From contig NC_083276.1 of NCBI RefSeq assembly GCF_963506605.1, positions 83,390,001 through 83,454,000 on the forward strand: DNA of 64,000 nt. Direction: 5' to 3'. Source of the DNA: Zootoca vivipara. Taxonomy: Eukaryota. Shown here in pieces: positions 4,198-59,800 of this stretch. The notes below the pieces were generated by a model. That model saw only the letters and a list, made by a program, of their open reading frames with translations, did not search any database and was not told the DNA's origin. The translations under genes were made by a program, and so were the position numbers. Position 1 is the first letter of the stretch; each line of letters begins with the position of its first letter.

Positions 4198-5051
4198 GAT
4201 CCCACAAAACCGCTCAGCCCGCGCGACTGAGGCTGGCAGCCCGAGAGGCAGTGTGCTCTAGCCCGGCTACGGCGGCTCGCTGAAGGCAAGAAAGGTCCGA
4301 GCGCGCTGCTCTATTATACTGTAGCAGCTTCGCCCAAACGCGCTGGGAAGCGCCGGCGGCACAGTCGGTAACTCACTGCCGCCCCCACGTGGCGCCTATT
4401 TTAACCCGCCAGTTTCAGTTTATAATCTTAAAATGTGGCCTCTGATGCGGCAAGCGACTGCTAGGCGCTGTGATCCCAGGCGGGAATCCTCTCTCTCTGA
4501 CGCAATGCGCCCTGCTTAAGGGCTGGGAAAAGCACAGGAGGGATCCCTCAAACCAGTTTACCGGTAACTACAGGTACTGGAGCTTTCCATGCGGCATGAA
4601 AAGGGAGTTCTCCTCCCTCTTCACAGACCAGTTTATTTAAAGGGGAAGTGGGTTCCCAAGTTACTTGCCCTGCTTTTTAGCCCGCTTTTGCTTGCGTTAG
4701 CGCGTGAGTGAGCTGAGCAGACAACAGCTCCTGGAAATCTCTAGGCAGGCTGCTTGTTGTAAGGCAATTCTCCCTTTCCAGCGTGGACAGGTGGTGTGTG
4801 GGAAGAGTTGCTCTCCAGATGGAAAACTGAACTCCTACTTACAATGACTGTGCTTTGTTCCCAGTCTCCTTGCCGGTTTAAGAGTGCTGCATTGCTCGCG
4901 ACTTCAATAGGCCTAGGGAACCTGTGGCCTCCCAGTTTTTTTCACTCCTGTTATCCCTGACCATTGGCCACGCTGGCTGGGGCTGATGGGAATAGGAGCC
5001 TAACAATACCTGGTCACAGGTTACCCCATCCTTGCTGTAGTGGCTTCAAAA

Positions 5052-13179: not shown

Positions 13180-14160
13180 ACCCGGCTTTGCCAACAGGCG
13201 CCGCAGCTTGGCCTGCTCGCCTTCATTTGAGCTGGCCGCCTTCCCTTCTTCTCCGCCCCTTCTGTTAGTTGTTAGGCACGTGGTTCAAAGCGAGCACGCC
13301 GGCTGGCTGGCGAGCGCAAATGAGCCCGAAAAGCGCCGGCCGCTGCGTCCTGACTTTGCGCGTCCGAGGAGCCCGCCTTGCGCGTCCCTGTTTCCCCTGC
13401 GCTCTCCAATAGGGAGCAGTAGGAGCACCTTTGCAGACCTCCCCGCTTGTCGCTCCGTGAGCGGGGAAGTGATTCCCTCCCCGGCGCCAGCGCCTCGGCA
13501 GCCTTCAATTTCTCCCGCTCTTCTGGAGATCCACCCCCGGCGGATCTCAGCAGCCGAGGCGTCGGCGTCGGTTCTCCCTCCTTCCCACCGTTCTTTCCTT
13601 CCTTCCACCTCGCTTCGCCCGCCGGGTCTTGCAGCTGAGGCTGCCTCTCCCCAGACGCGCACGGACGCCGCGGGCGGAGGAGAGCGCGCTTAGCTGGGAT
13701 GGCAGCGGATGCCGCGCGGGGCTGAAGCCGGAGCGGCGCCCGCCATGGCCAAGCAGTACGACGTGCTCTTTCGCCTGCTGCTCATCGGGGACTCGGGCGT
13801 GGGCAAGACCTGCTTGCTGTGCCGCTTCACCGACAACGAGTTCCACCCTTCGCACATCTCCACCATCGGTACGCCGGGGCTGGTAGGGTGGGGAAGGAAG
13901 AGAAGTCGCGGGGGGGGGGATCTGCCAGCCCGGCCTCTTCCACCGTCTCCACCGGGAGCGGGGACAAAGGCTGAGGAGGGCCGACGAGATTCGCCCTCGA
14001 ACAAGAGGAAGCCGCGGCGACTCCTTCATAGGGCATCCTCTGGGGCCCGGCTCGAGAGAGGCGGGAGACCCCGTGGGACACACTTGCGGCCTTGGGGGCT
14101 TCGCTGCTGGACTGGGGAGGAGGGGAGGGGTGGCTGAGTTGCATCGCGCGTAAAGACACT
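13180..14160 (+). promoter_or_regulatory. RAB15 CpG-island promoter and first exon region
   Basis: High GC and CpG density, GC boxes and a CCAAT near 13406, surrounding the RAB15 start codon. Confidence 0.8.
13745..13868 (+). CDS. RAB15: Ras-related protein Rab-15, coding exon 1
   Basis: gccATGG Kozak; [41 protein letters not shown] with P-loop GDSGVGKT; GT donor at 13869 (phase 1). Confidence 0.97.
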
Positions 14161-14508: not shown

Positions 14509-17500
14509 AAATGCAGTAATGCCAGCTCACCTCAAAGGTGAAAATAAATGTGACGTCATTGTTCGAAAATATGAGGTAGGCATAGCACCATGAGTCATAT
14601 GGAGGTGGGGGGGGCGGATGGAAGAGAGAAAGCCAGAGGGAAGGCAGACCTGCTTTGCTTTGCTTTCTGAAATCCTCAGTAGTGGCTATGCTGGTCCCAG
14701 GGAATAATGTCAGCTCCTCATGGGCTCTTAAAAAAACAGCCCTCTGATAAGTCCGACCTGAGCCTAAACCCATTACTTGGAATATGCCTGCTTCTTTGGA
14801 GCATCTGCTTTTTTGTGGGTGTTAGCAGCCACATATGTGTGCTGAGAATCTGGAAGCAGCTACTGTATGAGCCCATTCTATTTTTAGACACAGGAGTGAC
14901 TTGTGGGAGCATGCTGGTGAGCTCAGAACATAACACGCAAAGCATCCTTAAGAGAGACTAAACATTGGATGTGCCCCGTTTTTCTGAGTGATGTGCAGGG
15001 CATATCTGAAGTGGCCAAGAGCAGGTGTTTTAGCTGTTTGTAGTACCAGGCCTTTATATTTTGCATTTATATTCCACCTTTTCTCCAATGAGCTCAAGGC
15101 AGTAGAGATTTTTGGGTGGTTTCTCTTTGCTTTTGCAAGGGGGTTTAGTTGGTTGGGAAAGACATTGCCTGCTCCCCCCCCTCTCGACCCGCCCTCATTT
15201 TATTTATTGGGAGTGTAGGTGTTTGGCCAGTTGAGGGGCAGTTCTGAGCATCACCAGTTTTTCTTCTGTGAAATGGGTACTTTATGGTGCGTTTGACAGT
15301 TTCTTAGATTTCCAGAATACACCCTGGCGCCCCACAAGGTTGGGGACCCCTGCCACAACAGCTGCACCACACTAGCTCCAATGGCTTGCCTTCACTGTGG
15401 GATGCAGTGTGCCTCTGGATACCAGTTGCCAGAAACTGCAGGTGCAAATGCTCTTGCACCCGGGTCCTGCTTGTTGGCTTCCTATGGTGATCTGGTTGTC
15501 CACTGTGAAAACAGAGTGCTGGACTAAATGGGCCTTGGCCTGATCCAGCAGAGCTCTTCTTCTGTTAGCTCTCTTGGTCATGAAACACATTAAATAAAAA
15601 AAAGGGACCGTTTAAAACATGAATGGAGGTTCCCAGAGCATGACCTCAGTCAGGCCCCACAGTTCTGAAATTAGGCACAAAGCTTTCATCTCAGAAGGTG
15701 TGACTACTAGCATGCCTTTCATTTTAAGAAATGTAGCGAACGTCCAAAAATAACTTGCAGATTGTGCAGGATTTTTTGGGTGGTGGTGAGATAATGAAGT
15801 GTTGCTTGAAATGTGGTAAAAGAAGGCTGTGGCTGAGCTTCCCCACCTGCCTCTGACTTTGCCTGCCGAGGGCAACATGTTGATGTTTTCCTGTTGAAAC
15901 CATTCGTTTCTACCATTTTGCTAGCCATGCATAACCTATAGCAGGGGTTGGGAACATTTTTTTTTCAGTCCAAGGGCCACATTCCCTTCTGGGCAACTGT
16001 CCAGGCGACACATGGCAGTGGGTGGGGCCAAGGTGGGTGGAGCAACGAATGCAAATTTTACATCTATACAATAAGTTAGTTTGTCACACTCATGCACACA
16101 CTTCTCTATCCTCCATCCAGGCAAGCAAAAGGCAATGCAGGTTTTCAAGGACACATTCCAGGCAGTCAAAAGTATTCAAGGAAAGTGTGAAGCTGGGAGG
16201 GTTAGGGGTGTGGCCTGGGGAGAGATGGTGCCATATAGAGAGGTGTGATTGGCTGCATTTGACCTCTGGGCCTGAAACTCCCCAGCTATGGCTTGATTCC
16301 TCAGGCTTGCATTCAGCGGCTGGCAGCTTGAGAAGAAAGCTGCTTTGGGGCATGTCCATATTGACACTGCTCCATCTGAAAGAGCTCTGTAGCCCTAATC
16401 AGGCACAGGACTTGCAAGTAAGGCCAACACACATGTGGGGGGTTGGGCATTAGTGCTATTAGTGGAGTGTATTGAAGCTGTTATTTTCAGATTTGAGTAT
16501 TTGCAAACTTATGATGGAATCCATCTGGAAAGTGAGAAGTTCCCAACTTCCTCCGTCATCCCATTTGTTTGGGACTGATGGGTGTTGAAGTTCAGTAGCA
16601 TTGGGGTGGAGGTTCATTTGCTCTAGAGAGTGGTCTAATTTAGCAAGTTTATATTTCTTATATTTAGTAAACCAACCTAAAATCATTGACACTGCCAAGC
16701 TTGCATAATATTTGTTTGCAGTTGGCACCCATTGTTACTAGCAAACTTATGCAAAGGAAAATTGTCCATACAGAAATAAAGCTGTGATTTTCAAAAGCTT
16801 TCTTGGAACTTCTGGTACTAAGAAAGCAAGGTTTTCTGCTTAGCCCCATGATTTCTTGTAAATCATGCTTTTCCAAATTTCACCCGATTCATCACTCGTG
16901 ATATGTATTTGCATCCATATGCTACAGAGTCTCTCCTCTCTTCTACCCCTCCAGTTGTTTAATATCCTCCAATAAGTCACTGATTCTTCCAGTAACTTAT
17001 CTGGCCAGTGAACAGGCTTTAAGCTTTATTACAATTTGTAGAATCTGAGGGTCACCAACTGAAGCCAAGTGTAAAATAGTGCTTCAGGAAGGCAGACACA
17101 CATTAAGAATCAAGCACATATTCAGTCCAGGGCAAAAATCCATTCCTGGTTTCTCCACAAGGTTTCTTTGTTCAAGCCCTTTAATTTAGTGAGGGAAGCC
17201 TTTTAGTTGTTGCTATCATCAAACAATTGAGAAACACTTATGATCTACTGCAAAACACCCAGAGATCTACCAAGTAGATCGTGGCCTACCTTCTGGCTAA
17301 TGCTGCTGCCTTCCAATGTACCAAGGGAACAATGGTAGTAAACAAAGAATGGCTGAGCCACTTCCACTTCCAGTGTGTGCCCTAACTACCCCATTTGTAG
17401 GCTTGTAGCAAAATATACTACTCACAATGGTGGTTACACAAGGAGATTACCTCCTTTTAGCAGGGGTGGATCCACCAGATATTTGTAGGACGCCAACTCC

Positions 17501-17728
17501 CATCAGTCCCAGCCAACATGGCCAATGGTAAGGAATGATAGGAGTTGTAGTCCATCAACATCTGGAGGACCACAGGCCCCCACTCTGCTTTATAGGGGGA
17601 AAATCAGGTATTAAATGGTCTTCATTCAGGTGAGTATGCAGTGAAGACTATCACTAGGTTGGGTTTTCAGCCCCCACTTCCCTATTCTCCTGAGATGGGA
17701 CATTAGGAAGGTTGTGGAAGAGTGGAGT

Positions 17729-20923: not shown

Positions 20924-21059
20924 CAGGCATCTCCAAACTGCGGCCCTCCAGATGTTTTGGCCTACAACTCCCATGATCCCTAGCTAACAGGACCAGTGGT
21001 CGGGGAAGATGGGAATTGTAGTCCAAAACATCTGGAGGGCTGAAGTCTGGGGATGCCTG
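20924..21059. mobile_element. Palindromic hAT (Charlie-like) MITE
   Basis: CAGGCATCTCCAAACT...AGTCTGGGGATGCCTG with a CCTCCAGATGTTTTGG-CTACAA fold-back core. Confidence 0.85.
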
Positions 21060-28364: not shown

Positions 28365-29635
28365 GTAAGCAAGGGGGCCTCCCTTCTTCTTCCCCCTATT
28401 GTTGGGGACTGTTGGCCCCAGTGTGGGAGAAGTTGCCATGGCAAAATCGGATGAACTGCTCCTGCTCAAGGTCTGTGTGTATATATATATATACATGCAC
28501 TCTCTTGTCTTGAGAAGCCTTGTTCAAACAGAGAAATAGCACGTTTGGCTTAGGTGCTTGGTTTATCTAGAGATTGTAGGATTAAAATAGCCTTGGGAAT
28601 TCAACAGACAATCCGGATGTCCTTGAAAAAGGCATAACACTATTGGGGTGTCCTTATTTCCTGTGAAAGGGCTTCTACCTTGTGTAAGCTCCTCAGTATT
28701 TAGCAAGTGCTAACTAGAAGATTATGCAGGAACTAGAGGAACATCTAATAAACCTTAACCGTGTTTTAAATCTGAGCTGTATTATGCCATCTCTGCTGCC
28801 ACAAAAGGCTGCTGTTTATTTTTTTGATAATAACTATTATATTGTTTTGCATGTAAAACATCCAGTGAATATTTATTGATAAGTGGCTATATAAATGTAA
28901 TAATAAATAAAATACACTGCTGTTGAATAACTGATGGAGGCATCTTGGATACTGCCAGAGTGCTAACTTTGTGTCCTTGTGCACATACTTTCTGCCTTTA
29001 CACTGTTAGGGAATTTTTTATAGATTAGCCTTTGCCAGGTTGGTGCCCTCCAAATGTGTTGAGACTACAACTCCCATCAGCTTTAGCCAGTCCTGGGGCT
29101 GATGAGAGTTGTGGTCCAGAACACCTGGAGGCACTGGGCTGGTGAAGGTGTTGCATATTTTTACATGGTGACTCTTAACACTCTGCCACAACTGGCACTG
29201 AAGTAATCTGCTTTTGCAGTGAACTTAACAGCGAGATGAACAGGTTTGGACTGAAGAAGATGCTGTTGGGCATGTGCAATCAACTCTGTTGGCCCCTGGG
29301 TTTGGGGGGATTTTCTAGCTGCCCTTTTTCTTTGATTGGCTTTGGTCTGTGGAAGCTCTGTTTTCTGTAAGACCATCCTGTGATTCTTTTAATTGCTTTG
29401 TTAAGATCAGAAATGTGTTGGGCGGTGCCATTTTCCAGATGTTTGTGTTGCAGTGGGGGAAGAAGCCAATTGCTATGAAAATTCTCTGCCCTGTGCAACA
29501 GTTAAAAGGCAACAGGAATGGTACATTTGACAATCCCAAGTCTGAATAGTGCCGTACAGCTCAGTTTTTAACTACTGCATGCTGCTTCTAATCTATGCTG
29601 ATTGGGATGGGCTAAAGTCTCTCCCTTCTCTCCAG

Positions 29636-31566: not shown

Positions 31567-34500
31567 AAGCCTCCCAGTGCTCTTCCTTTTCTTCTGTCCC
31601 CCAGTGCAGGCAGAGAGGCTGCCACCTAGAGAGGGCTCCATCTCTTTGGTCTCTGGTTGCCTGCCTGCCTGCCCACTCTCTGCCCTGCTGGATCCTCTAT
31701 GGATTTCCTGGTGTTTCTCCTTGATTGGTGATTTCTGTTGTTCCCCCAAACTCCCTGGATCCAAATCTCTCTTTGGGGGGGGCTCACAATACGCAGAACA
31801 TCACCCCGCCACCTTTGCGGAAGAGCTGTGGTTGGCGATCGCAGCAGCCGAGGCCTATTCAGCAGCCTCTCAACCTCCAGGTGCTCTGCAGCCTTGCCCT
31901 TTTCCAGGGGGCAGCTGAGCCGGTTGGGTTCTGTGCCTGGCTGCAACTAGGCCTGTCCTCTGAGAACAGGGCGCTCAAGGAGGGAGGAATGTCCCGCTTC
32001 CTTCACTCTCCTCCAGACAGACCGTTTGCTTGCACACCCTCAATAGCAGGCCTGCTGAAGGCTTGTCCGTTTGTATCTGCCCGCCACCCCCCCTCCACCC
32101 ATACATTGCCTTGCCATTTCAGCATCTGCCCCAATTCCTGCACAGCTTTGTGCAGGGTTGGGGCTTTGCGGCTGTGTTGGATACAGTGTCTTGTACATAC
32201 CTGGCTGCCTGGAGGTTGTTGTTTTGAAAAAACAACCTCTCATCACGGCACCTCGCCAAATTGGGGCTTGTTCCAAAGTGCGCAGCGGCATCTCTTGCCC
32301 TGCTAAGTGTAAGCTGCTGGGAGCAGCAAGAGTCTAGCCCTGCTGGGAAAGGGGTAAGATGATGGAAATTTGGGGCTTTAAATTCAGACTCGCCTTACCA
32401 GTTGCAAAGAATGTTTGCTTCTTCCTGGGCCAAACTAGTCTCCTGTTTTGTAACTTCTTGGAGCCTTGTGTTGCACACCAAGCAAAATCCTTGCCTTCTA
32501 CATTTACTCGAAAATTTTGTAGGGCATCTTCGCTTGGCTCCCCTTGGGTATCTTTGGTGGTGCAGGTACATCAGGCACCCGCTTAGCTTATATCCCTGCA
32601 CCAATGGAGGCAGAGAGCCCACCCTATCTGTGTGTCACCTGTGTAGAACTTGGAATGACTTTCCCAACTATTCACCAAAGCGCTGATACGGAAACACACT
32701 GTAATCTGTGCATAGAGCCTCCCCTCATTTGTTTCTTCTCACTCTTGAGGTCCAACCTGTAAGAGGTTGCTCAAGACCCTTTCGTGGGCTCTTTTTAGAA
32801 GTTCCTCCACAGAAGGAATTTCCTTGGAAGCTCAGCCTGGTAGATTCCAGGGTATCCAATTTATTTGGTTCTTTTGCCATGTGCTGCTTAACATGGCTTG
32901 ATCCGAGCAAACTGAAACCAGCCTGCCTGCCTGCATGTTGTACCAGCATCCCCCTCTCACCTTGACATGCTTGGTGGGGGAGGCCTAAAGACACTTGGCA
33001 GCATGCCATGGTAATTCTAATCTATATGCGCCTGCCTGCTCCAGAGTAGCTGCTCCCTGCGTGCCAACACCTTGGGGAGGCTAAGACTCCTTTCCCTTCC
33101 TATGTATGTGCCAGCAATGGGCTACATTTGCAGATCTAGAAAGGGTGGGTGTCAACCAGAGGCTTTCTGGGTGGGATGGTGGTGCATAAGTCCTCCTGCT
33201 GCCTAGAGAGGCTGCCTTTGGTGGAGGGGGTGGGGCTTAGGCACAATCCATTTGAGTGATAGAAAATGTGATGATCTGCCCTTCCCTAGCCAGGTCATAC
33301 CAGAGAGCAGACTGATTTACATTTCCCTGCTCATTTCCCCTCTTCCTCTTCCAGTTGGTTGTTGACTTTCTCTCTCGGAGCAGATGAAAAATCTTTTTAC
33401 CCGGTGAAGAAGAGGAAGGGGAGTAGCATGTAGCGGGAATGAAGTTGGCTGCACTGTGATGCTTGTTCTGAAAGCAAGGGTGCCTTGCTTTTCCAAAAAA
33501 AGTCTCCACTCTCAAAACCACCAGTTTTACCTCTTTCTTTGTGCTGGGTGGGTTTGAACAGGTATCAAGCCACTGGAAATGTAAGGGGGAAACAGTGAAG
33601 TTCTACACACAGTGCCTGCTGTTGGCAGGAGCAGCTCTCCTGTAGCCACAGTCCCCTGGGAAGACCCCAGTCCCAGGGTCTGGGAAGAAAGAGGCACGAA
33701 ACGGCTTGACCACAAGGGACCGCTTCCTGCAAGACCTAGTGTGAAGCTGGAGATATTGTAGACACTAATAAGAGACACACGTAGCTGGTAGCCTGTTTAG
33801 TTTTTGAACTACAACTCCCACCGTCCCTGACCTAAGGGCCGTGCTGGCTGTGATGGTGTGAGGGGAGCTGGAATCAAACAACACCTGGAGGACCAAAGCT
33901 TCCTCCCAGCCATGATGTAGTAGGACCCAAATTCTGTAAGAACAGGTGGAAATGCAATGAAATGAGGACTTGTGCAGGTGGGGAACTAGGCATCTTTGCC
34001 CTGAGAGAGAAGGCATGTAGAGACTGAGGGAAATGGGTCGGCCACAGCAAAGGAAGAGCTTTTTTGTAAGCCCAAACTCTGTTGTGCTGACTGGTTGAGG
34101 CCTTGTTGGCTTTCACTGGCTTTGGTCTGCCTAGCTTGTTAGGAGGTTGGAATGAAGACTGAGGGCCAATCCTTGCACAGAGAGTCTATGTGGCCTGTGT
34201 TGTCTTCTCTCCCCACCCCCACCACCCACTCTTGTTTTCTGACAGGATTGCACTGCACCCAAGGTGAATGGGCATGCTGTGAGTGCAGAAAGCAGGTTTG
34301 CACGACCACTTAAACTTACAGTGTGGAAGGCCTGTGGCAGCATGCAGAACTGCCATGCTAAGACATGTGTGTGATGAGAAACTTGGAATAACTCACTTGG
34401 CATGTTCTCAGTGCAACTGGGAAACAAAAAACAGTGGCTAGCTAGCTGCCTGCAGAGAGTGGTTGTCTTAGCTGGTACCTGGCTGTCTCTTGCACTCTGT

Positions 34501-42251: not shown

Positions 42252-42476
42252 ATGATGACTCCCATAGCCAAATCTTTCTACGATCTCAACGCCACCGACC
42301 TCCAAGGGGAGAAGGTGGATTTCAACAACTTCAGAGGGAGGGTGGTCTTGATAGAAAACGTGGCCTCCCTCTGAGGCACAACGGTGAGGGATTACACCCA
42401 GATGAACCAGCTGCAGAGCAAATACCCTCGACGGTTGGTTGTGCTGGGTTTCCCTTGCAACCAGTTTGGCTACCAG
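42252..42476 (+). CDS. GPX2: Glutathione peroxidase 2, coding exon 1, with in-frame UGA = selenocysteine at 42372-42374
   Basis: [75 protein letters not shown]|gtaagt. GPX signatures NVASLUG and LGFPCNQF. The ORF track misses this exon because of the UGA. Confidence 0.97.
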
Positions 42477-42619: not shown

Positions 42620-42713
42620 CAGGTGTTTCCCAGCCCTACCTGGAGATGCCAGGGATTGAACCTGGGACCTTTTGCATGCAACGCAGATGCTCTTCTGCTG
42701 AGCTACAGCTCCT
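42620..42713 (-). mobile_element. tRNA-derived SINE head in the GPX2 intron
   Basis: Minus strand GGAGCTGTAGCTCAG...GGTTCAATCCCTGGCATCTCCAGG (A and B boxes) running on into a SINE body. Confidence 0.65.
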
Positions 42714-44858: not shown

Positions 44859-45181
44859 GATGATTTGAAACCAATTATTGCTTATAAACACATATATGAA
44901 ACTCTTGCCTTGAAAGCAACGAGAGTCCTTGTTTCTTACATCTGTTCTAGGGAGCCTGCCCCAGAATGTTGTGCAATATCCTCTTGTATGAGCTTCAGCC
45001 CCTGCAAGGAAGACCCTTTCACATAAGTCAAACCAGCCATGCATTTGAGCATAGCAGGAACCAAAGCAAGATTGCGTCCAAAGTGCTCTGCTGGTTCCGC
45101 TAAGTGCAGCAGGGAATAGACTGAGCTTGATCTGTACAGGGCATCCCAATGTTCATTGTGCTTCCCACTTCTCTCCATCAG

Positions 45182-45532
45182 GAGAACTGCACGAATGAAG
45201 AGATCCTCAACAGCCTGAAGTATGTGCGGCCTGGGTCCGGATTCGAACCCAACTTTACCCTTTGCCAGAAATGCGAGGTGAACGGCAAGAACACCCACTC
45301 CGTCTTTGCCTACTTGAAGGACAAACTTCCTTACCCAGATGACAACCCTTCCTGTTTCATGATGGAGCCTAAGTTCATCATTTGGAGCCCGGTGCACCGC
45401 CATGACATCTCCTGGAACTTTGAGAAGTTCCTGGTGGGGCCCGAAGGCGAGCCTTTCAAGCGCTACAGCCCCCGATTCCTCACCACCAACATCGAGCCTG
45501 ACATCCAGCGCCTCCTGAAGCTTGCCAAATAA
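45182..45532 (+). CDS. GPX2: GPX2 coding exon 2 (terminal)
   Basis: cag|[25 protein letters not shown]...[15 protein letters not shown]...IQRLLKLAK*; catalytic WNF motif. Protein total 191 aa. Confidence 0.97.
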
Positions 45533-45581
45533 GAGAACAAGCATTCCCAAGATTATTCCAGTGGAGACTGGTCCGTTAGGG

Positions 45582-45719
45582 CAGTGTTTCTCAACCAGTG
45601 TGCCTCCAGATGTTTTGGGACTACAACTCCCATCATTTCTGACCACTGGTCTTGCTAGCTAGGGATGATGGGAGTTGTAGTCCCAAAACATCTGGAGGCA
45701 CACTGGTTGAGAAACACTG
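45582..45719. mobile_element. Palindromic hAT MITE in the GPX2 3'UTR
   Basis: Perfect 55-bp inverted arms (45582-45636 / 45665-45719); exact 8-bp TSD CGTTAGGG (45574-45581, 45720-45727). Confidence 0.95.
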
Positions 45720-46125
45720 CGTTAGGGCAACCTCAGCCTGCCTTCACCTTATTTCTTACAAATGCCCCGAGAGGTGGCACGGCCCGTCAGCTTCCTCCTC
45801 TTCCTTCTCCGTTTTGCTCTTGTAGAACTCAGAAGGAAGGAGGCAAAACTAGAGTTAGTGGGCTCTGTCTGTCATTGGCCCTGGCCCCACTTAACTGTCG
45901 ATCTCCCCGCATTTGGCCCCAATGGGCACCAGACACCACTGGATTATTCTAAGTGTCTTGATGGAGCAAGGCGGGTCATAAGAATGGCTTGACGTTCACT
46001 GCGCTGTGATCATGGGTGTCTCCTCCCTGCCCACCTGTAGAAATACCCCCACGCCCCAACTCCCTCATCTTCTTTCTGGGTATATCAGGTGCTTCCTCCC
46101 AGCTCCTGACAGAGCCAACATCAGA

Positions 46126-46186
46126 CTTTTACTGAGTGACGGTGCCCTCCTAAAGCTCCATGGAGGGGGCCTGAAAGGTGTAAAGG
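46126..46186 (+). promoter_or_regulatory. SECIS element (form 1, GUGA_AA_GA core) of GPX2
   Basis: Helix I CUUUUAC/GUAAAGG; core G-UGAC (46136-46140) opposite UGAA (46172-46175); helix II GGUGCCCUCC/GGAGGGGGCC; apical AAA (46152-46154) 11 nt after the core. Confidence 0.88.
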
Positions 46187-46236
46187 TGCTGATCCCCTGG
46201 CCTTTGCTTGCTGGGCACTCCTTGTTTCATAAGTCC

Positions 46237-46242
46237 AATAAA
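46237..46242 (+). terminator. GPX2 polyadenylation signal
   Basis: AATAAA 50 nt after the SECIS, followed by a T-rich downstream element. Confidence 0.75.
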
Positions 46243-48176
46243 TGAGTTGAAGAATCCCTTGTTTTCTTATCACACACTTTTAAAATGGTTGCTTTTGCTT
46301 CCTAGGCTGAAAAAACCAAAAACCACAACTCTTTCCCATTTCTGGCCTTCGATGTCCTTTTTATTCCCATTTCCCATAAATCGTGGCATTAAACAAAGCA
46401 GTATGTGTACAATACCAGGCACTGGGGGCCATTTATTAGCTTAATATTTCTGTCCTTCCACATCCCCCAATGGCTCCAACCATTCAAATGAAAAATGACC
46501 CTAAACTCTGCTAGGTAAAAGCATTCCCTGCCACAATTCATGATTTCTCCCCGTGAGAGTATAGACTTAACAAATATGACTTGCAGTATTCTATCAGCCC
46601 CCTTTGTCTTAAGATACTGTATTGGGACTATACCTGGTTAGAAAATTTACATGCTGCCCCAGCTCCACGCAGGAAGTATTAAAATGCCCAGCTTTGTTAA
46701 CACATATTGCAAGAGCAGCACAAATAAATTGAGTTTTGCTCCTAACCAAAGTAAACCATAATACCAGTTGCTGGAAACCACAGGAGGAGAATGCTCTGAT
46801 GCTCAGCTCCTGCTTACAGGCTTTCCATAAGCATCTGTCGGCAATGTGAGATCAGAAGGCTAGACTCGATCCAGAAAGCTCTTATGTTCTCATTATCACT
46901 CAATGCAGGTGGCAGAAACTCTTCCTAATCCAGGGGAAAATCAGGCAATTATGATTCTAATTTTATAGAATCTACCACCTCTACTTCTGATTATATCGCT
47001 TTCAGCGGTACCAAACCTCCTGCTTCTGTCCTGCCGGCTGAACTCAGGTGAGCCATTTAAGTCACTGCTATTTCTCTTTATATGCTTTTCCTGTTCACAT
47101 CCAACTCATTAGAACCTGCTCTACTCTTTACCATACTCTTATGCACATCTCAGGAAACATCCATCAGCCTCTGCCATCTCATAAGAACATTCTTTATATC
47201 ATAATTTACTCTGTTTAACCTAGGGCAAATAAAATGCGAAGTGTCCCAATCTAGGATTTGGGTTTGAGGGGCATGCACCTGGGACCCACTGCAGAAACGC
47301 TGACCTGGTCTCATGAATTCTGCAGGCGGATGAAATGTCTGCAGTTCTGTTTATCATTCCTCCACCACCACCACCCTCCGCTTTCATCTGACAGTGGCAG
47401 ACTGCAGCACTCCCCATCGCTGGCACTCTGTCCAAACAGCCAGGGAGAGGTGGCCACACAGGTAAAGCAGAATTTTGGAGTGCAGAATCACTCCAAAAAC
47501 AGTCAAGGTAAATGAGAGGGCACGAAGCAGGTGCAAAAGGAGATGTCTGAGTTAGGAAATGGTAAACCTGAGTATGTCTTGACAAAATGCCTTTTGCTTA
47601 AGGAGAGTTAAGGAGAGGCTAGTCTGATGTATGCCAGACCTGCACAGGAGATTTAATTGCTGAGATTCATTATGATCATTTAAATAAGCCCTGCTTCCCT
47701 GCACCTGGGCTTGCCACAGCACAAACTATAAAGTAGAGATGCCCCCCCCCCCGTCACAATACAGCTTATCTTAATATGCTGTATGGAACAAGACCAGCTT
47801 TTGCAAACTGGGTCAGCTGTACAATGCAACATGACTTCCATTTAAAGCAAGGCCTGGTCTTAACAGGAGTCACAATGCCAGATGGATGAAGAGGGAGATT
47901 CAACGCTCGCCATGTCTTGCCGCTGTCCACCTGGATGACCCTAGGAGAGTCTATGCTCTTCAGGTATCGCATAATCATAAAAATCTATATATATTTTAAA
48001 ATGTAGAAGGTGCGTGTTTGTTATTCCACACCTTTCTCCACAACCGCTTGCCCAATCGGGCTCAACTTTGCCCACAAAAACCGAAGTCACATGTGGGGGT
48101 GTAACCACCCACTTACATTGACCAGATGACACACCAAGCACAGGTACCGTAGAAACCTGGATTTCTGTACAAAAAA

Positions 48177-50302: not shown

Positions 50303-50588
50303 TGAGAGAGACTAGGGGAACCTTTGTGTGGGGAACCTTTGGCCCGTCAGATGTTGCTGAGCTACAACTCCCATCAGCCCCATCTAGCATGGCCAATGGC
50401 CAGAGATAATGGAAGTTGTAGTACAGCAACATCAGAAAGGCCAAAGGAACCCAACACCTGCCATACTTGAGCCAATTCACTAAATATATAACACTGATAA
50501 AGACTTTTCCTGACACAGAAAAGGAAATAATCTGGGCAGTTCCAAAATCGGACAAATGCTTCCACACTGGTGGCTAGCAGTTAACATC

Positions 50589-51045: not shown

Positions 51046-51138
51046 TCAGAACAATGGAGTCATCAGATGAGGATCGTCTGGCAAGACACTGATAGAATCT
51101 TCTGCCCTGCCACAGAGCATGCACAGCATGGTGTATTC
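51046..51138 (-). CDS. CHURC1: Churchill, coding exon 4 (terminal)
   Basis: tag|[30 protein letters not shown]. Exons total 339 nt = 112 aa + stop. Confidence 0.96.
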
Positions 51139-53050
51139 CTAGAACAAGAGACAAAACACACTTACGTTGGGAGAGTGAGAGAGAACACTTGCTGCCCATA
51201 ACACGGGCCAGGCCACATCAGGCTAATCTAGCATCTACCTAGTTGAAAACTACAATGGAAAGTCTCCAGGTCGTCAAAGAATGCTGCTGTTTTACAAACC
51301 AAGACCTTTAATGTGCAGTTTGCCCATGTCACATCATATTGAAGCCGTGTTTGTTAGAACTTGCTTCCACATGAGACAATACTTCTTTTTCTTTTTTATT
51401 GTGAAGACATGCCTGTACAATTCCAGCTGCTCAGAAACGGTGCGACACTATGAAAATGAAGTGAAGTACTGGGTGTAGACTTTAGCATCTGAAAAACCTC
51501 AAATCTCGTTTTTTTTAAAAAAAAAACCTGTTGAGTTTCTTCTCCATATGGTCACAAATACAATCTTTAAAATTTGCAGGCAATGCCAGAATAGGGGGAG
51601 AGTAGACAAAAAAAAGCAGGCTTCTATATTTCCGTCCCTTCTCAGAATTATACCAGACCCAGGTATACAAAAAAGTAAGTATACGCATATTTGCTTGACT
51701 GTTGCAAGAACTAGAGTGCAGAATTCAACAGTTCTTGACCCACAGTTCTATTATTTGTTTTTTAACCATGGAGAGCACATAGGCATGGTAATGCAGAATA
51801 ACTGCAGAAACTGAACACAAGACTTTTCACTTAAAGCAAGGAGCCACAATGGAAGCCCTTATGAGTCACACCAGATCTTCCAAGACTCTTTATAATCAGT
51901 GCTCTTTAATCTGCATTCTCCCCACTATCCCCACCCTCACCACTTCTGATCGTATCTTTTTATCATCTGCTTTGGGTGACAGCATTTAAGAAAAAGAGAG
52001 AAATATGCCTATGTGAGAGGATTGTATTATAAAGGAAACTGTGGTGGCTGTTACTGGGAGGAGCATGTACAGGGAGCGACCCAGGAGTAGTAGTGGGTTG
52101 TGTAACCATCCAGTTGAAAATTTAATAAGCACTACCAGTTGTGCACGAGTCATAAGGACTAATGAATTATCTGAGAGAATGTTAACAAAGATCCAATATC
52201 CACCCAGCAGAGGGAGACAGAGATACAGCATTGTATTCAGTCTGGGAAGTTGCACTCAGGAACATACAGCTCAGAAGCTGACCAACTCTTCTAAAGTCTG
52301 GCTTTCAGTGTGGGTGAGTGGGTGCGGAGTGGGCCTGGGCCAACACAGGGGAAAAACCTACGACTTTACCCCCTTGCTTTTCTTTCAACTGGTTGAGGGC
52401 TAGAAACTTGCATGTCTGCATATACAATGAAAGCAGATATTCTAAAAAGCAACAGTCTGTACTAGATGCTAAATACTGCTATGCACATCATGCAGAATGT
52501 AAGCAATTATGCCATCTGCCATCGGCACACATTTTGAAAACACATTGTTTACATAAGCAAACAAAAGACCAAAAGGAAAAAAATACAGCTATAAGAGGGG
52601 ATGTGGACAGCGACAGCAATAGCACTTATCACCACTGAACATGATGTAAAACATGAAGAGCTATCTTTATATTAGAGGCTATCAGCAAAACATAACTGAC
52701 AAAGAAGTTTGGTAGTATCTGTTGGATAGTCTGTCATTTGATATGGACCTCATAGTGCCTTGACATATTTCTCAAATGAAAGACTGTTAAAACACACACA
52801 GAAAGAATGAATAACTCTAAGCAGTGTAGCAGCTGCAACATATTCTGCAGCTGGTACAAACCAGGAGCATGTCAGCCAAAGCACACATGGTCTTTAGATT
52901 CCTCCCCCCCACCCCAAAGAGATGGAAATTTTATATTAGAACTATACACAACACAATTTTGTGCTTATGTATTCAAAATACATCCTGGTATGTTCAATGA
53001 GGCATACTCCCAGATCTGTACGCACAGGACTGCAACCTTGGATCCCAATA

Positions 53051-53445
53051 CAGTGGTACCTCAGTTTAAGTACACAATTGGTTCCGGAAGTCTGTACTTC
53101 CCATTGAAAGTAATGGAAAGTGGATTAATCCGTCCCAGACAGTCCGCGGAGTACTTAAACTGAAGCGTACTTAACCTGGAGCGAACTTTCCCATTGAAAG
53201 TAATGGAAAGTGGATTAATCCGTTCCAGACGGGTCCACGGAGTACTCAACCTGAAGAGTACTTAACCCGAAGTATGAGTGTAATTGGTTCTGGAAGTCCG
53301 TACTTAACCTGAAGCGTACTTAATGTGAAGCGAACTTTCCCATTGAAAGTAATGGAAAGTGGATTAATCTGTTCCAGACGGGTCCGTGGCGTACTTAAAC
53401 TGAAAGTACTCAAACCGAGGCGTACTTAAAACTGAGGTATGACTG
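53051..53445. mobile_element. Tc1/mariner-type MITE with internal tandem repeats in CHURC1 intron 3
   Basis: TA|CAGTGGTACCTCAGTTTAAGTAC ... GTACTTAAAACTGAGGTATGACTG|TA; three copies of TTCCCATTGAAAGTAATGGAAAGTGGATTAATC. Confidence 0.85.
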
Positions 53446-53533
53446 TACTTCTTGCATCTTAGTGACACAGAAACATAAAACAAAAACAAGCAAACAAGTT
53501 ATAGGAGACTAATGAATGTCACAAGCGTTTTAC

Positions 53534-53604
53534 CTGGTAATCGTCCACTACACTGAAAGTATATTCGTGCCTGGCTATCACATGGTGACAGTTCTTACAT
53601 ACAT
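53534..53604 (-). CDS. CHURC1: Churchill, coding exon 3
   Basis: cag|(H)[23 protein letters not shown]|gtaaa; 71 nt, ends in phase 0. Confidence 0.96.
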
Positions 53605-54910
53605 CTGAAAGGAAAAACAACAGATTTAGAAAAGATCATTAGCTTGGCTAGCAGGACCACTTAGGCCCCAATCATGCTCATGCTCTGAATCAATCCCTCG
53701 TTTCAAAAATATATTCGCCCAGTTAGACAGGAATCCAAAGGAAGACATTTGTTAGTCCAGCCACACACATAAGGATGTGGGGGTGCACATCCATTATTTA
53801 TGCTTTCTCATACTGTGTTTACTTTGCTTTTTCTATCACTACCACTGTCCAAACTGACAGGAGAGAAGCTGCACATACGTAGCTACTATAACAACACCCA
53901 TCCAGCTAGAAGCAACCATTGTAGCAGCAGTAGCTACGAAAAAGGAGAGTAGGAACACAGAGGTATACAGAGAAGTTGGGAGGGGGAAACAGTGCAGTTT
54001 GACACTTGGTTGCTCATTTAAAATTGTTTAAATAGCCAAGTGGCAAAATCCAGAAAGATACATCTAATCTTAGAATGATGTTCCAAAAGAACAAGTTTCT
54101 TTTCACTGCCACGGCTGCTGAACACGGTTGCTTTTTACAGCCTTTGCAGTTAGGTAATTAATTTAATCACAACTTAAATCTTTCACTGCCATCACAATTT
54201 TATGACAAATTTATTTAGAAAATTTTACATCTCTACATGACTCGAAGATGGCTGATTTGGTTTCTATAGAGTGGCACTAGCCAGATAACACAAGAGAAAT
54301 ACTGGTTCATTCATTCAATCATCACCAAAAGATGCATGCATTACATTTCCAAGCAATTTCACTGAAGGGGGGGGGAGTTATTGGGTTGTTGTTGTTTTTA
54401 TTTTGATTATGTATTTTGTGGTTTTATATTTTGATTTCAGTCTGTGAATTGTCCTAAGACAGATTATATAGGGCAGTATATAAATTCAATAACAAAATAA
54501 AGAAACAAAATAAATAAGCAGCTTTCAAGCATGGTGAAAGAGATGGGGATAGAAACTATTCTAGGAAGCTAGAGGAAATAAATAAGAGGAGGGCTGGTAG
54601 CCAGAATGGCACTGCAAGAGACAGATTTCCCCCAAGAGCCAGATAGAAAGAAATGGGAACATAGGTTTTCTTTCAGCAGCAGCCACAATTCTGAGAGAAT
54701 CTGGTCATGTAGTTACGCTTACAACTGAGAATGACTACCTCCATCAGCTGCAAAATGTATCCTGGTGAGCACCATGTCACAGTGGATCACTACCACCTAT
54801 TTGAAAATGTAACCATCATAAAAAGTGCTTCTTCAACACACAGGCTTCTGGAATGGGCCTCTTAAGCCCTGAGCACGTCTGTACAGTTGATAAAAGTTCA
54901 GCCTCCTTAC

Positions 54911-55046
54911 GATCATAAGTGATAATTTCCTCTCCATCATCATCTTCTGCTACTTTGTTTGTTATCAACACGAAATCCTTTTTTTTACATTCAATGCAAC
55001 CCACGTAGTTCATCAAATAGGAACCATTCTCCAAGCAGGTGTTACC
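54911..55046 (-). CDS. CHURC1: Churchill, coding exon 2
   Basis: tag|[45 protein letters not shown]|gtaagg; 136 nt. Confidence 0.96.
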
Positions 55047-56019
55047 CTAAGGCATTCAGAAGAACAAAATTATTATTGTGAAACCAATGCTCTCTTCTTA
55101 TAACAGCTTCATTTAATCATCAAATTATGCAATACATGGGAGTTCTGCAACTAGAAAATGTGTTTTTTTCTTTTTTAAAAACCAGCAATGGGGTGATTTG
55201 ATTCAGGGCTACACAGTTTCCCATATATAAATCCCTTCATTAGCAATGAAGTTGGAACTTAACAGACACAATTTATATGCTAGGAGTAAAATCTAGTTTT
55301 GCTCTAACAGAGGATGTAAAAGTTGTTAATAGCATGACTGGGCCTCTCCAATTCTAGTTTTAGGCTAACCGCAAACATTTAGTGGTCTTAGGCAAGCCAC
55401 TGACTTTCAGTGCCAATGCCTGTCTGTTTCCCTCCAGCCATCCACATAGATCATATGGGGCTAGTAATACTGAATTACTTTGCACACATATTCTCAATTA
55501 TCCTAACATAATATATGTAAATATATTCATAAATTATAACCTAAAACCACTCTGTCACCTGTAAACCACAACCCTAGACACTTACTGGGTTCTGCGGTGA
55601 GGCTTTTCTGGAATTTCAAATGTTCTCAAACTGTCACTCTCCAGACATTTTGGACTACAATTTCCATCATCCATGACCACTGGCCCTGTGGCTGGGGTGA
55701 TGGCAAACAGCTGGAAAGGCTAACTTAGTTGTACCCTGCTGACAGGAAACTGGGGTGCAGCCACCACCCAAAATACCGCCATTCAGTATTCTGCACGAAT
55801 ATGATTACAGTAGTCATTCTCAACGCAATTCCACCCACCTACTCTGAATCTGACTTCCTGCAGCTGCCTGGGGCATCGGATGTCCCAATTAAAAGCGAAC
55901 AAATCATTACCAAGGTGAAGATATTGGGTGGGAACAGTATAGCACCGAGGAGGGGGCGCGGAACAGGCCTTACTTTGTAAAAAGTGGGTAGAGGTTAGGA
56001 CTGTCGGCTGCAAGTCACA

Positions 56020-56820: not shown

Positions 56821-59800
56821 TTTCCCTCTTTTGTAAAAAGGGAACTGTTGGAGGCTTTCAGTCACAAACCTGACATCAACAAATGGCAACATCTAGATAA
56901 CCAACATCCGATGGCGAGTCCGTTGCTGATACGTTTATTTTATTTTATTTTATTTTATTTAAGTCCCCATGTCTTAAAAAATATAAAAAGTCTTCAGAAA
57001 GTTGGTTCCAGTCCAGCACTAAACTGCTGAACGAGAATGTATCAGTTCATTAATTCTATCCAGTACAGACTTAACACGGACTGTGAGACAGCAATCCTAT
57101 GCATTTACCTCAGAAAAAGTCCCACTGAACTCTGTGATGAATAGAAGAGGATAGTTTTGTGATTCCCCCCCCCACACACACACAAAAAAAGGGATACAGT
57201 ACAACAGGGGTAGCCAACATAGCGCTCTTCAGATGTTGTTGAGACTACAGTTTCCATCGTCCCTGACCACTGGTTGCGATGGTCAGGGCTAGTGGGAATG
57301 GGAGTCCAACTAATCTGGTGTGTACCATGTTGGCTAATACTGCAGTACCATATGCAGTGCGGTCCCTATATAATATACACAACCTGCAATAAGACCCACA
57401 AAACATGTAAATATACTTCCAATGTACATACCGGTACTTCAAAGAACAAGCACATAAAAACAGGACAAATGGATAATAATACTTTGGGACTGTGCCAGTG
57501 ACACTACACATAGCCTATTCATTCACAGGGGTGGTGGTGGAGACATGCCCCCAGCACACACCCCAGCATCACAACACACAAGATGGTGCGACGCCACAGT
57601 ACCCCACTTTATCAACTCTGGTGGTGCACAGCCTTCAATGACCCTACAATTGACAGTCCCTAGGCATTCCTACACACAGGTTCAAATCCCCTTAATGCTC
57701 CTCACATGGCCACTGTTTTGCAAGCAAACCACAAAGAGGATATAGAAGAAGGTGCACAAAACAGCATCCACAGAGATTCCTGGATGGAATGCCTGCAAAG
57801 AGACCTCCCTGGGACAAGGATTCAAGTCCCACACAAGCAAAACACTCTTTGACATGCAGCCAATGGGAGAGGCCAGGATACACAATGGCAGCCGCAGCTG
57901 TGGGGTTTGCTCCATAGGATAGACCAGGAGTGGCTAACCTATGGTCCACAAGCTGTATCTGTCACACACACACACACACACACACAAACACCCAACTATG
58001 TACCAACTATGTACACCATAAATTTATAACTGGGTCAATGTGGCCCTGGCTCAAAAAGGATAAAGCACAGATCTGGGAAGTAGGATATAAAAGTTTAATC
58101 CCGACCAGAAGAATATGGGTAACATGCTCCCATTACCCTCTTCCACAGCCTCTTAAACAATGTAATGCCAAGACAAAAGAAGGGGTGCTCCCAGCACTCC
58201 AAATAATCATACAGTACTACAAGCATCAAAGGCTAGCTCCCTAACACTCCAACCACTGTAATCAGACACATTATGAGGCATTTGTCTCCATGCACACTCC
58301 AAATACCTAAGCAACATTACCAGGCTCAGAGGAGAAGCCATGGTGTGGCTTATCTTTTAAATCTTTTAAATACTTTCTATTTATCATATTTTTATCTCAA
58401 CTTTTAGACAATTATTGTCTCTCAAATTGGGTTTTATTAATTTAAAAGAGAGAACTAGAGAATGTGCTTGTCGTCATGCTTATAAACTAAAGTCGCTTCC
58501 AAATGATATATTTATTGAGGATTAATCCGGATTTATTTAGGGGTAGATTAGATTTATTGAGAAATCATTCCAATTTATTTATGGGAACTTAATATGAGGT
58601 TGCATCAAGCAAATGTTATCCCACAGAAAATTACCTCATGAGCCAAATTGGGACTTCTGGTGGGCCAAGTCTAGTCCTGGGCTGGAGGTTCCCCACCCCT
58701 GTGGTAGACCTACTGCACAGGTCTTACTTCCAGGGAAACATAATCCAGGCATAATAAAATTTAACACCTGCCTCTGTTAGCTTTTCATAGGAAATCAAAT
58801 GGTCTTATGGTGCATTCTGCTCAAGGTTTGTATTACAAAATGTCTGTTTCATAAATGCCAATACTGAAAAAAATGAAGGTGGTTAACTTTGTGCTCTTCT
58901 TCTGAAGACCTACCGGTACTAACTTATTCCCAGTTTTCCCCACCCCTGCTTTTAATTACCCTTCTCCCACACATTGTTTGAGTGTTAGTTTAAGTGGAGT
59001 TTCCTGGAGCAATTGCAGTGCTTCAGCCAGAGCTGTTGTCTGCTGATGAGTTTCACAGAGTTTGGCTAATAGACATTCACTGCCAGATGTTAATTAAGCA
59101 AAAACAAGTCAAGCAAATAAAAATGCTGAGATTTTAGGCTTCCAAATGCTTGCGTTTGAGGTTGGTTGGTCACAGTAGTTATTTCTTAGGGGCAATTCTA
59201 TCCTGTAGCTCACATTAAATTATTTTGATAATTATGTAGTAGCACATTAGTTTTCCTGAAGGATTTGCTATCTATGAGTGAATAATGCAGAAAGTGACAT
59301 GATAGAACAGAACAAGGCAGTCTAACATTCCCATCAGCACTGGGGCCCAGTTGTCAGATGTGCAACATATTGTGGACTAATCTGGTGGACATAGGGTCTC
59401 TGCACGTTACCTAAAGTTTGAGACTTTTATCTTCCACATCCACACCTCTTAAAATGGAAGGAAAGTATGCACTAATGTTAATCCATTTCAAATTGTGAAC
59501 TGGTCCCAAAACTGTGAGGATGGGGTGTGTGTGGCAAAACACTCGAGATTCCTGCAGTTAGATCTTGAATGCATGGATTCCTGTTCACATTCAAGTTAAA
59601 TAAAAATATATGGATTTAATGGTGATCTTGTTTGATTTAAATTAACACAGATATGGTTGGAGTGACATGCCATGACAACAGGCCTGTTTCTTCAAACTCA
59701 AAGGTTCAAGGTAAGCTATTTATTAATATTACAATAAATAAAAGCAACAGAAATTAAAGAGTAGGATCACAGCTAGAAGTACAAAAAAATTAATTACAGG

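Follow-up and report, generated by a model that had tools for sequence, protein, structure and literature searches.

A young palindromic hAT MITE in the 3'UTR of lizard GPX2 and the likely ADAR editing of its family

We analyzed a window of 64,000 nucleotides of Zootoca vivipara DNA (contig NC_083276.1, positions 83,390,001 to 83,454,000, forward strand) and found that a young, palindromic hAT MITE lies between the stop codon of a gene assigned by its sequence to GPX2 and a downstream SECIS-shaped stem. Chance alone would hardly produce such a sequence structure, yet it is typical for any copy of the MITE family, and the family as a whole is likely edited by ADAR. The reading that we favor, and consider probable, is that the element is a passenger, which contributes a dsRNA stem that ADAR edits upon expression of GPX2 and that has little effect on recoding. 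The more ambitious proposition, namely, that a lineage-specific burst of palindromic hAT MITEs endowed GPX2 with an edited stem immediately past its stop codon which alters mRNA decay or translation and thereby rewires the selenium response, appears distinctly improbable. All positions refer to the window unless a different locus is named.

A perfect 55-bp inverted repeat downstream of the GPX2 stop codon

The preliminary description of this locus reported a 138-bp hAT MITE with perfect 55-bp arms and an intact TSD, located 49 nt past the stop codon, and all these features were reproduced at 45582-45719 (Table 1). The claimed position of the element between the stop codon and the SECIS was likewise recovered, with the TAA stop at 45530-45532, 49 nt ahead of the MITE, and the SECIS-shaped stem at about 46120-46193, 416 nt beyond it. 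The inverted repeat accounts for 110 of the 138 bases, and the predicted uninterrupted helix extends to 60 bp when G-U pairs are counted. Folded as RNA, the MITE has a predicted energy of -133 kcal/mol (z = -16.3), and equal stability was reached in 0 of 200 shuffled sequences. When the entire 3'UTR is folded computationally, pairing of the two arms has a mean probability of 0.999, and the expected number of MITE bases pairing outside the element is 0.03.

Table 1. Coordinates of the GPX2 coding exons, the two transposable elements and the 3' end features in the window
Feature	Position	Strand	Remarks
GPX2 exon 1, coding part	42255..42476	+	Start codon and donor deduced from the DNA
GPX2 exon 2, coding part, to stop TAA	45182..45532	+	
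TSD of older element, left copy, 8 bp, GATTATTC	45551..45558	+	
Older non-autonomous element of hAT type, 237 bp after subtraction of the young insert	45559..45941	.	Imperfect terminal repeats
TSD of young MITE, left copy, 8 bp, CGTTAGGG	45574..45581	+	TA at positions 4-5
Young non-autonomous hAT MITE (Buster-type TSD), palindromic, 138 bp	45582..45719	.	
Left arm, 55 bp	45582..45636	+	0 mismatches vs right arm
Spacer, 28 nt	45637..45664	+	Predicted: 5 extra pairs and a small hairpin
Right arm, 55 bp	45665..45719	-	0 mismatches vs left arm
TSD of young MITE, right copy, CGTTAGGG	45720..45727	+	
TSD of older element, right copy, GATTATTC	45942..45949	+	
SECIS-shaped stem-loop	~46120..46193	+	Core GUGA...UGA; upper helix of 10 bp; apical loop with AAA
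First AATAAA past the stop	46237..46242	+	Likely poly(A) signal, from sequence

The young MITE interrupts an older element of hAT type, within the left of its two terminal repeats, a nesting that was overlooked in the preliminary description; the MITE had landed in sequence that was itself derived from a transposon. Sequence of the older element was found at 40 or more other places at 71-81% identity. Both ends could be seen in 7 of the 17 copies fetched (262-431 bp), one of which has a near-intact TSD, those of the others being decayed. Together, the older element and the MITE make up 391 of the 710 nt between the stop codon and the AATAAA. Given that the MITE is nested in the older element, the UTR had presumably tolerated an earlier insertion, and the young MITE would have broken no ancestral UTR sequence. 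The terminal repeats of the older element are also predicted to pair with each other, which would give a multi-branch structure closed 26 nt past the stop codon.

The host gene and its putative SECIS

The assignment of the host gene to the antioxidant gene GPX2, also known as GI-GPx (PMC3316567), follows from its coding sequence and its neighborhood. The match of exon 2 to human GPX2 reaches 196 bits, compared to 164-169 bits for GPX1 chains, and the two-exon frame comprises 190 codons with an in-frame TGA at 42372-42374 (codon 40, predicted to encode Sec). The gene is flanked upstream by a Ras-family first exon (13745-13867, plus strand), which we take to be that of RAB15, and downstream by Churchill-family exons (51055-55046, minus strand); this order, Ras-family, GPX2, Churchill, presumably matches that of mammals. 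In addition, a tRNA-Ala(TGC)-like sequence was identified in antisense orientation within intron 1 of GPX2 (42641-42712, minus strand; Rfam 51.7 bits; ARAGORN), which may be either the head of a tRNA-derived SINE or a tRNA gene.

A SECIS is recognized by its GA/GA quartet and by an apical loop with unpaired AA (PMC3316567), and both hallmarks were found at 46120-46193 in the sequence and in its predicted fold. Against the Rfam SECIS_1 model, this stem scored 19.4 bits (E 0.81), which is under the 35-bit gathering cut-off; we call it a putative SECIS on its motif, its position and the in-frame TGA.

The UGA codon is separated from the SECIS by 1,056 nt, or by 910 nt without the insert, a difference of 146 nt. 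Mammalian UGA-SECIS distances span 207-5,207 nt, with a minimum put at 51-111 nt (PMC3316567). In the fold of the 3'UTR, the SECIS helices form with probabilities of 0.99-1.00, which are the same to two decimals with the hairpin folded or blocked, and on these grounds we rejected the idea that the hairpin disturbs the SECIS sterically or in its folding. Thus, with the SECIS fold unchanged and the spacing of 1,056 nt within the mammalian range of 207-5,207 nt, the calculations reveal no way in which structure or spacing would alter recoding, and the modulation of Sec recoding suggested in the preliminary description gained no support from them. The SECIS would fold and work independently of the hairpin.

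Staufen-mediated decay is known to be triggered from sites just downstream of stop codons. This background, together with the geometry of the locus, in which the Sec codon precedes the exon junction by 102 nt and the stem follows closely upon the stop, speaks for a selenium-dependent switch, whereby the stem would recruit Staufen/UPF1 or ADAR and change either the low-selenium response or the recoding of the UGA. A further argument comes from SELENON, the expression of which is controlled by ADAR1 acting on an Alu, through splicing (PMC9076623). However, the SECIS fold is unchanged, a shift of 146 nt is trivial compared to the natural range of spacing, and no sequence feature separates the GPX2 copy from over 1,200 others. 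We consider such a switch to be very improbable, in favor of a passenger stem.

A recent burst of Buster-type hAT MITEs

The first 31 bases of the MITE yielded 1,229 forward and 1,239 reverse exact matches in the genome, 2,468 altogether, compared to 0 for the control. The family has at least about 1,230 copies, and 1,300-1,460 once mutated ends are allowed for. A tiny family had been suggested by the occurrence of 5 identical sequences among the 40 that were scored of 1,017 BLAST candidates, a view that was overturned by the 2,468 exact ends. For comparison of individual copies, we took the first 100 matches listed, which correspond to 54 elements; this sample comes from a single contig and is biased to intact copies. 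Fifty-three of the 54 were 138 bp long and ungapped; the remaining one, internally deleted, was dropped, leaving 53 full-length copies.

The majority sequence was matched exactly by 30 of these 53 copies. The 8-bp TSD was intact in 49/53, TA occupied positions 4-5 of the TSD in 50/53, and the mean divergence was 0.41% overall and 0.55% when calculated for the middle part alone, which was not conditioned on the search. The low divergence and the intact TSDs are in keeping with the recent insertion of a young hAT MITE that the preliminary description had proposed. An nnnTAnnn 8-bp TSD is the signature of Buster elements (PMC3517528). The lizard family is short and non-coding, has terminal inverted repeats and the nnnTAnnn TSD, and is present in a high number of copies of uniform length. 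The TSD consensus and the homogeneity of the copies thus identify the element, at the level of sequence, as a hAT MITE of the Buster type that spread in a recent burst; its class was assigned from the TSD, termini and copy number.

Perfect 55-bp arms were present in 35 of the 53 full-length copies (66%), and 55-64% would be expected from divergence alone. Selection and unusual youth were rejected as explanations of the perfect arms, and the absence of arm mismatches in the GPX2 copy, which had been presented as special, turned out to be ordinary. The GPX2 copy differs from the family majority by a single variant, which falls in the spacer (position 57 of the element). This variant was seen in 0/53 sampled copies; however, identical copies occupy three other insertion sites, and the variant is also present in an older, 136-bp subfamily. 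Judging from these shared occurrences, the GPX2 copy belongs to a minor sub-lineage of the family.

A search for the autonomous partner covered 15 of the 74 matches to PF05699 (hAT domain), and no element with matching termini and a TSD was found among those fetched. An apparent 8.4-kb element sharing the MITE ends was rejected, being two separate MITEs with different TSDs. In the scenario that we propose, a hAT transposase acting in trans, the source of which was not found, would have placed the MITE at an nnnTAnnn target that was offered by chance in the terminal repeat of the older element.

If 3'UTRs are assumed to constitute 0.5-2% of the genome, chance alone would place 6-25 of about 1,250 copies in a UTR. 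One sampled copy with perfect arms (L104:4694-4831, G000 C13) is located 520 nt past an unrelated 667-codon BED-zinc-finger/hAT ORF and precedes an AATAAA cluster; it is possibly a second 3'UTR insertion, which suggests that such placements recur. Two other copies (L002 and L003, G000 C10) are identical, have the same flanks and TSD and lie 1,173 bp apart, and are best described as one insertion that was duplicated along with its surroundings. Eight older relatives of the MITE core were identified in the window, at 4944-4991, 17472-17576, 20945-21038, 29047-29134, 33800-33891, 50348-50433, 55623-55703 and 57227-57307. In the seven of these that were folded, the longest helices measured 6-20 bp.

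Inclusion in the transcript and probable editing

In all three same-species RNA runs (about 6% of each), neither exon 2 of GPX2 nor the part of its 3'UTR outside repeats was covered by any read. Scanning of the sequence revealed no poly(A) hexamer between the stop codon and the SECIS and no consensus donor before the end of the MITE. Because the element lies upstream of the SECIS with neither signal present, we infer that it would be transcribed and carried in the GPX2 mRNA. These signals, or rather their lack between the stop codon and, respectively, the SECIS and the MITE end, also speak against the possibility that the MITE is spliced out or otherwise missing from the mature mRNA, or that the locus serves as a source of small RNA. 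Pointing toward a small-RNA source, the MITE core (45609-45692) resembles the Rfam family mir-5408 (RF04264) with a score of 58.3 bits, and MITE-derived miRNAs do exist, as exemplified by Made1/mir-548 (PMC1784062). However, 58.3 bits is below the 90-bit cut-off, and any copy of the family could yield small RNA. Taken as a whole, loss of the MITE from the message or a role as a small-RNA locus is very improbable. Membership of the MITE in mir-5408 was rejected, the scores on the two strands being 58.3 and 56.9 bits against a gathering score of 90; the resemblance suggests that the Rfam annotation itself derives from a related MITE.

The RNA reads that map to the MITE come from other copies. 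We pooled them over the three runs and considered the subfamily-specific ends of the element. On one strand, A>G changes were found in 56/112 reads at 45593, 46/113 at 45594 and 21/113 at 45597; on the opposite strand, the corresponding counts were 3/71, 3/72 and 1/72. At the mirror positions, which represent the same sites, T>C changes were seen in 40/131 reads at 45708, 31/132 at 45707 and 20/132 at 45704, with 0/84-0/86 on the opposite strand. The sites were taken from 14 rows chosen among 40 listed of 85 variant rows. In DNA contigs, which derive from another individual and are unmatched to the RNA, the changes at these positions amounted to 0.005-0.05%, and G occupied them in 0 of 106 sampled genomic arms. 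Across all changed places, A>G and T>C together accounted for 36/58, 30/62 and 33/65 in the three RNA runs and for 11/29 in DNA.

Strand skew alone is no proof of editing, because a genomic variant at 45591 is likewise skewed (20/71 vs 9/112, p = 6.5e-4), as expected when few loci supply the reads. Nevertheless, the A>G changes are strand-polarized in RNA and almost absent from DNA, and the MITE family is therefore likely A-to-I edited by ADAR. The long near-perfect duplex that characterizes an ADAR substrate is present in the predicted fold. Thus, the earlier claim that the stem is an ADAR substrate stands as likely at the level of the family, on evidence that comes from sister copies; for the GPX2 transcript, we propose that the MITE stem would fold on itself and be edited by ADAR. 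The wider MITE family is very abundant in RNA, with a core depth of about 500-1,600 per strand. Reads covering a short repeat fragment downstream of GPX2 (46760-46790) originate at a different locus, and one RNA run contributes most of them.

A cis effect of the stem on GPX2 is possible but unsupported. In its generic form, the insertion would be a cis-repressive allele, the perfect stem of which cuts GPX2 output independently of selenium, whether by way of dsRNA-binding proteins, by retention of the RNA in the nucleus, or by slowing transcription or lowering translation. The stem is predicted to form with a probability of 0.999 per pair in the full UTR. Alu-length duplexes measure about 300 bp, and the GPX2 stem measures 55-60 bp. 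In reporters, perfect inverted SINEs repress more strongly than natural or imperfect ones (PMC5080714), and in rice, translation of Ghd2 is repressed by a MITE in the 3'UTR, which acts via DCL3a (PMC5338036). However, these precedents involve duplexes of Alu length or a plant pathway, the sister copies appear to be edited, which would weaken the stem, and the insertion is found on at least two haplotypes. We regard cis-repression as unlikely, although it is the most credible of the alternatives to an edited passenger with little effect on recoding.

Comparison with known systems

Transposon-derived hairpins in 3'UTRs have already been well described in frog, primates and rice. In the literature searched, which included few subscription journals and no supplements, we found no description of the GPX2 locus, of a MITE near a SECIS or of mir-5408. 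Most similar among known cases are the palindromic Harbinger repeats of Xenopus tropicalis; such a repeat is a short, self-folding DNA transposon that is edited without a neighboring inverted copy and is the most edited family in Xenopus (PMC5625713). In contrast to the frog repeat, the lizard family is of the hAT type, and its editing signal is that of pooled sister copies with unmatched DNA. Among Buster-type hAT MITEs, Mar of Drosophila willistoni is similarly short and non-coding, with TIRs, an nnnTAnnn TSD and many homogeneous copies (PMC3517528). The lizard family differs from Mar-like elements in that the inverted repeat occupies 110 of 138 bases and in that no autonomous or relic partner was found at the 15 loci.

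Other parallels concern the transcript. The Stowaway-like MITE of rice Ghd2 also forms a hairpin in a 3'UTR (PMC5338036), but repression has been demonstrated in rice and needs the plant DCL3a, whereas GPX2 is a vertebrate selenoprotein gene, known here from sequence. Inverted pairs of Alu or other SINEs in 3'UTRs similarly produce repeat-derived, edited dsRNA with possible cis effects (PMC5080714), although the GPX2 stem is a single self-fold of 55-60 bp rather than a pair of long SINEs. At SELENON, a transposable element and ADAR1 likewise meet at a selenoprotein gene (PMC9076623), but control is exerted there through exonization of an intronic Alu, whereas GPX2 has a 3'UTR stem. Finally, Made1/mir-548 (PMC1784062) and Rfam mir-5408 are comparable as palindromic MITE hairpins, the resemblance of the lizard core to the latter being sub-threshold.

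Of general value beyond GPX2 are the perfect 55-bp stems that this young family has inserted into the genome, roughly 800 or more in number (35/53 of over 1,200 copies), and the apparent editing of sister-copy RNA. If the stem did affect GPX2, the two alleles of the locus would provide a simple test of the influence of a short, perfect duplex on the fate of a selenoprotein mRNA. Were the selenium response indeed rewired, filled and empty alleles would constitute a natural experiment on a transposon-derived structure in selenoprotein control.

Presence of the insertion in individuals

The filled allele is present in the assembly and in the one other DNA sample (1/1), in which contigs covering 45150-45604 and 45695-46786 cross both junctions. 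The flanks in this second sample differ from the assembly by 5 SNPs, and the filled allele thus resides on at least two haplotypes. No empty-site joint was found among the 15 joints listed of 24 for one DNA sample, in contigs that by their nature cannot show absence. In anoles, polymorphic hAT insertions are common (PMC7561263), so that polymorphism of the MITE insertion would, by analogy, be unsurprising. The MITE is probably neutral in GPX2, and the insertion would persist through drift. In sample X4, a contig from elsewhere carries two MITEs head to tail, separated by 10 bases (joint 45719 to 45582).
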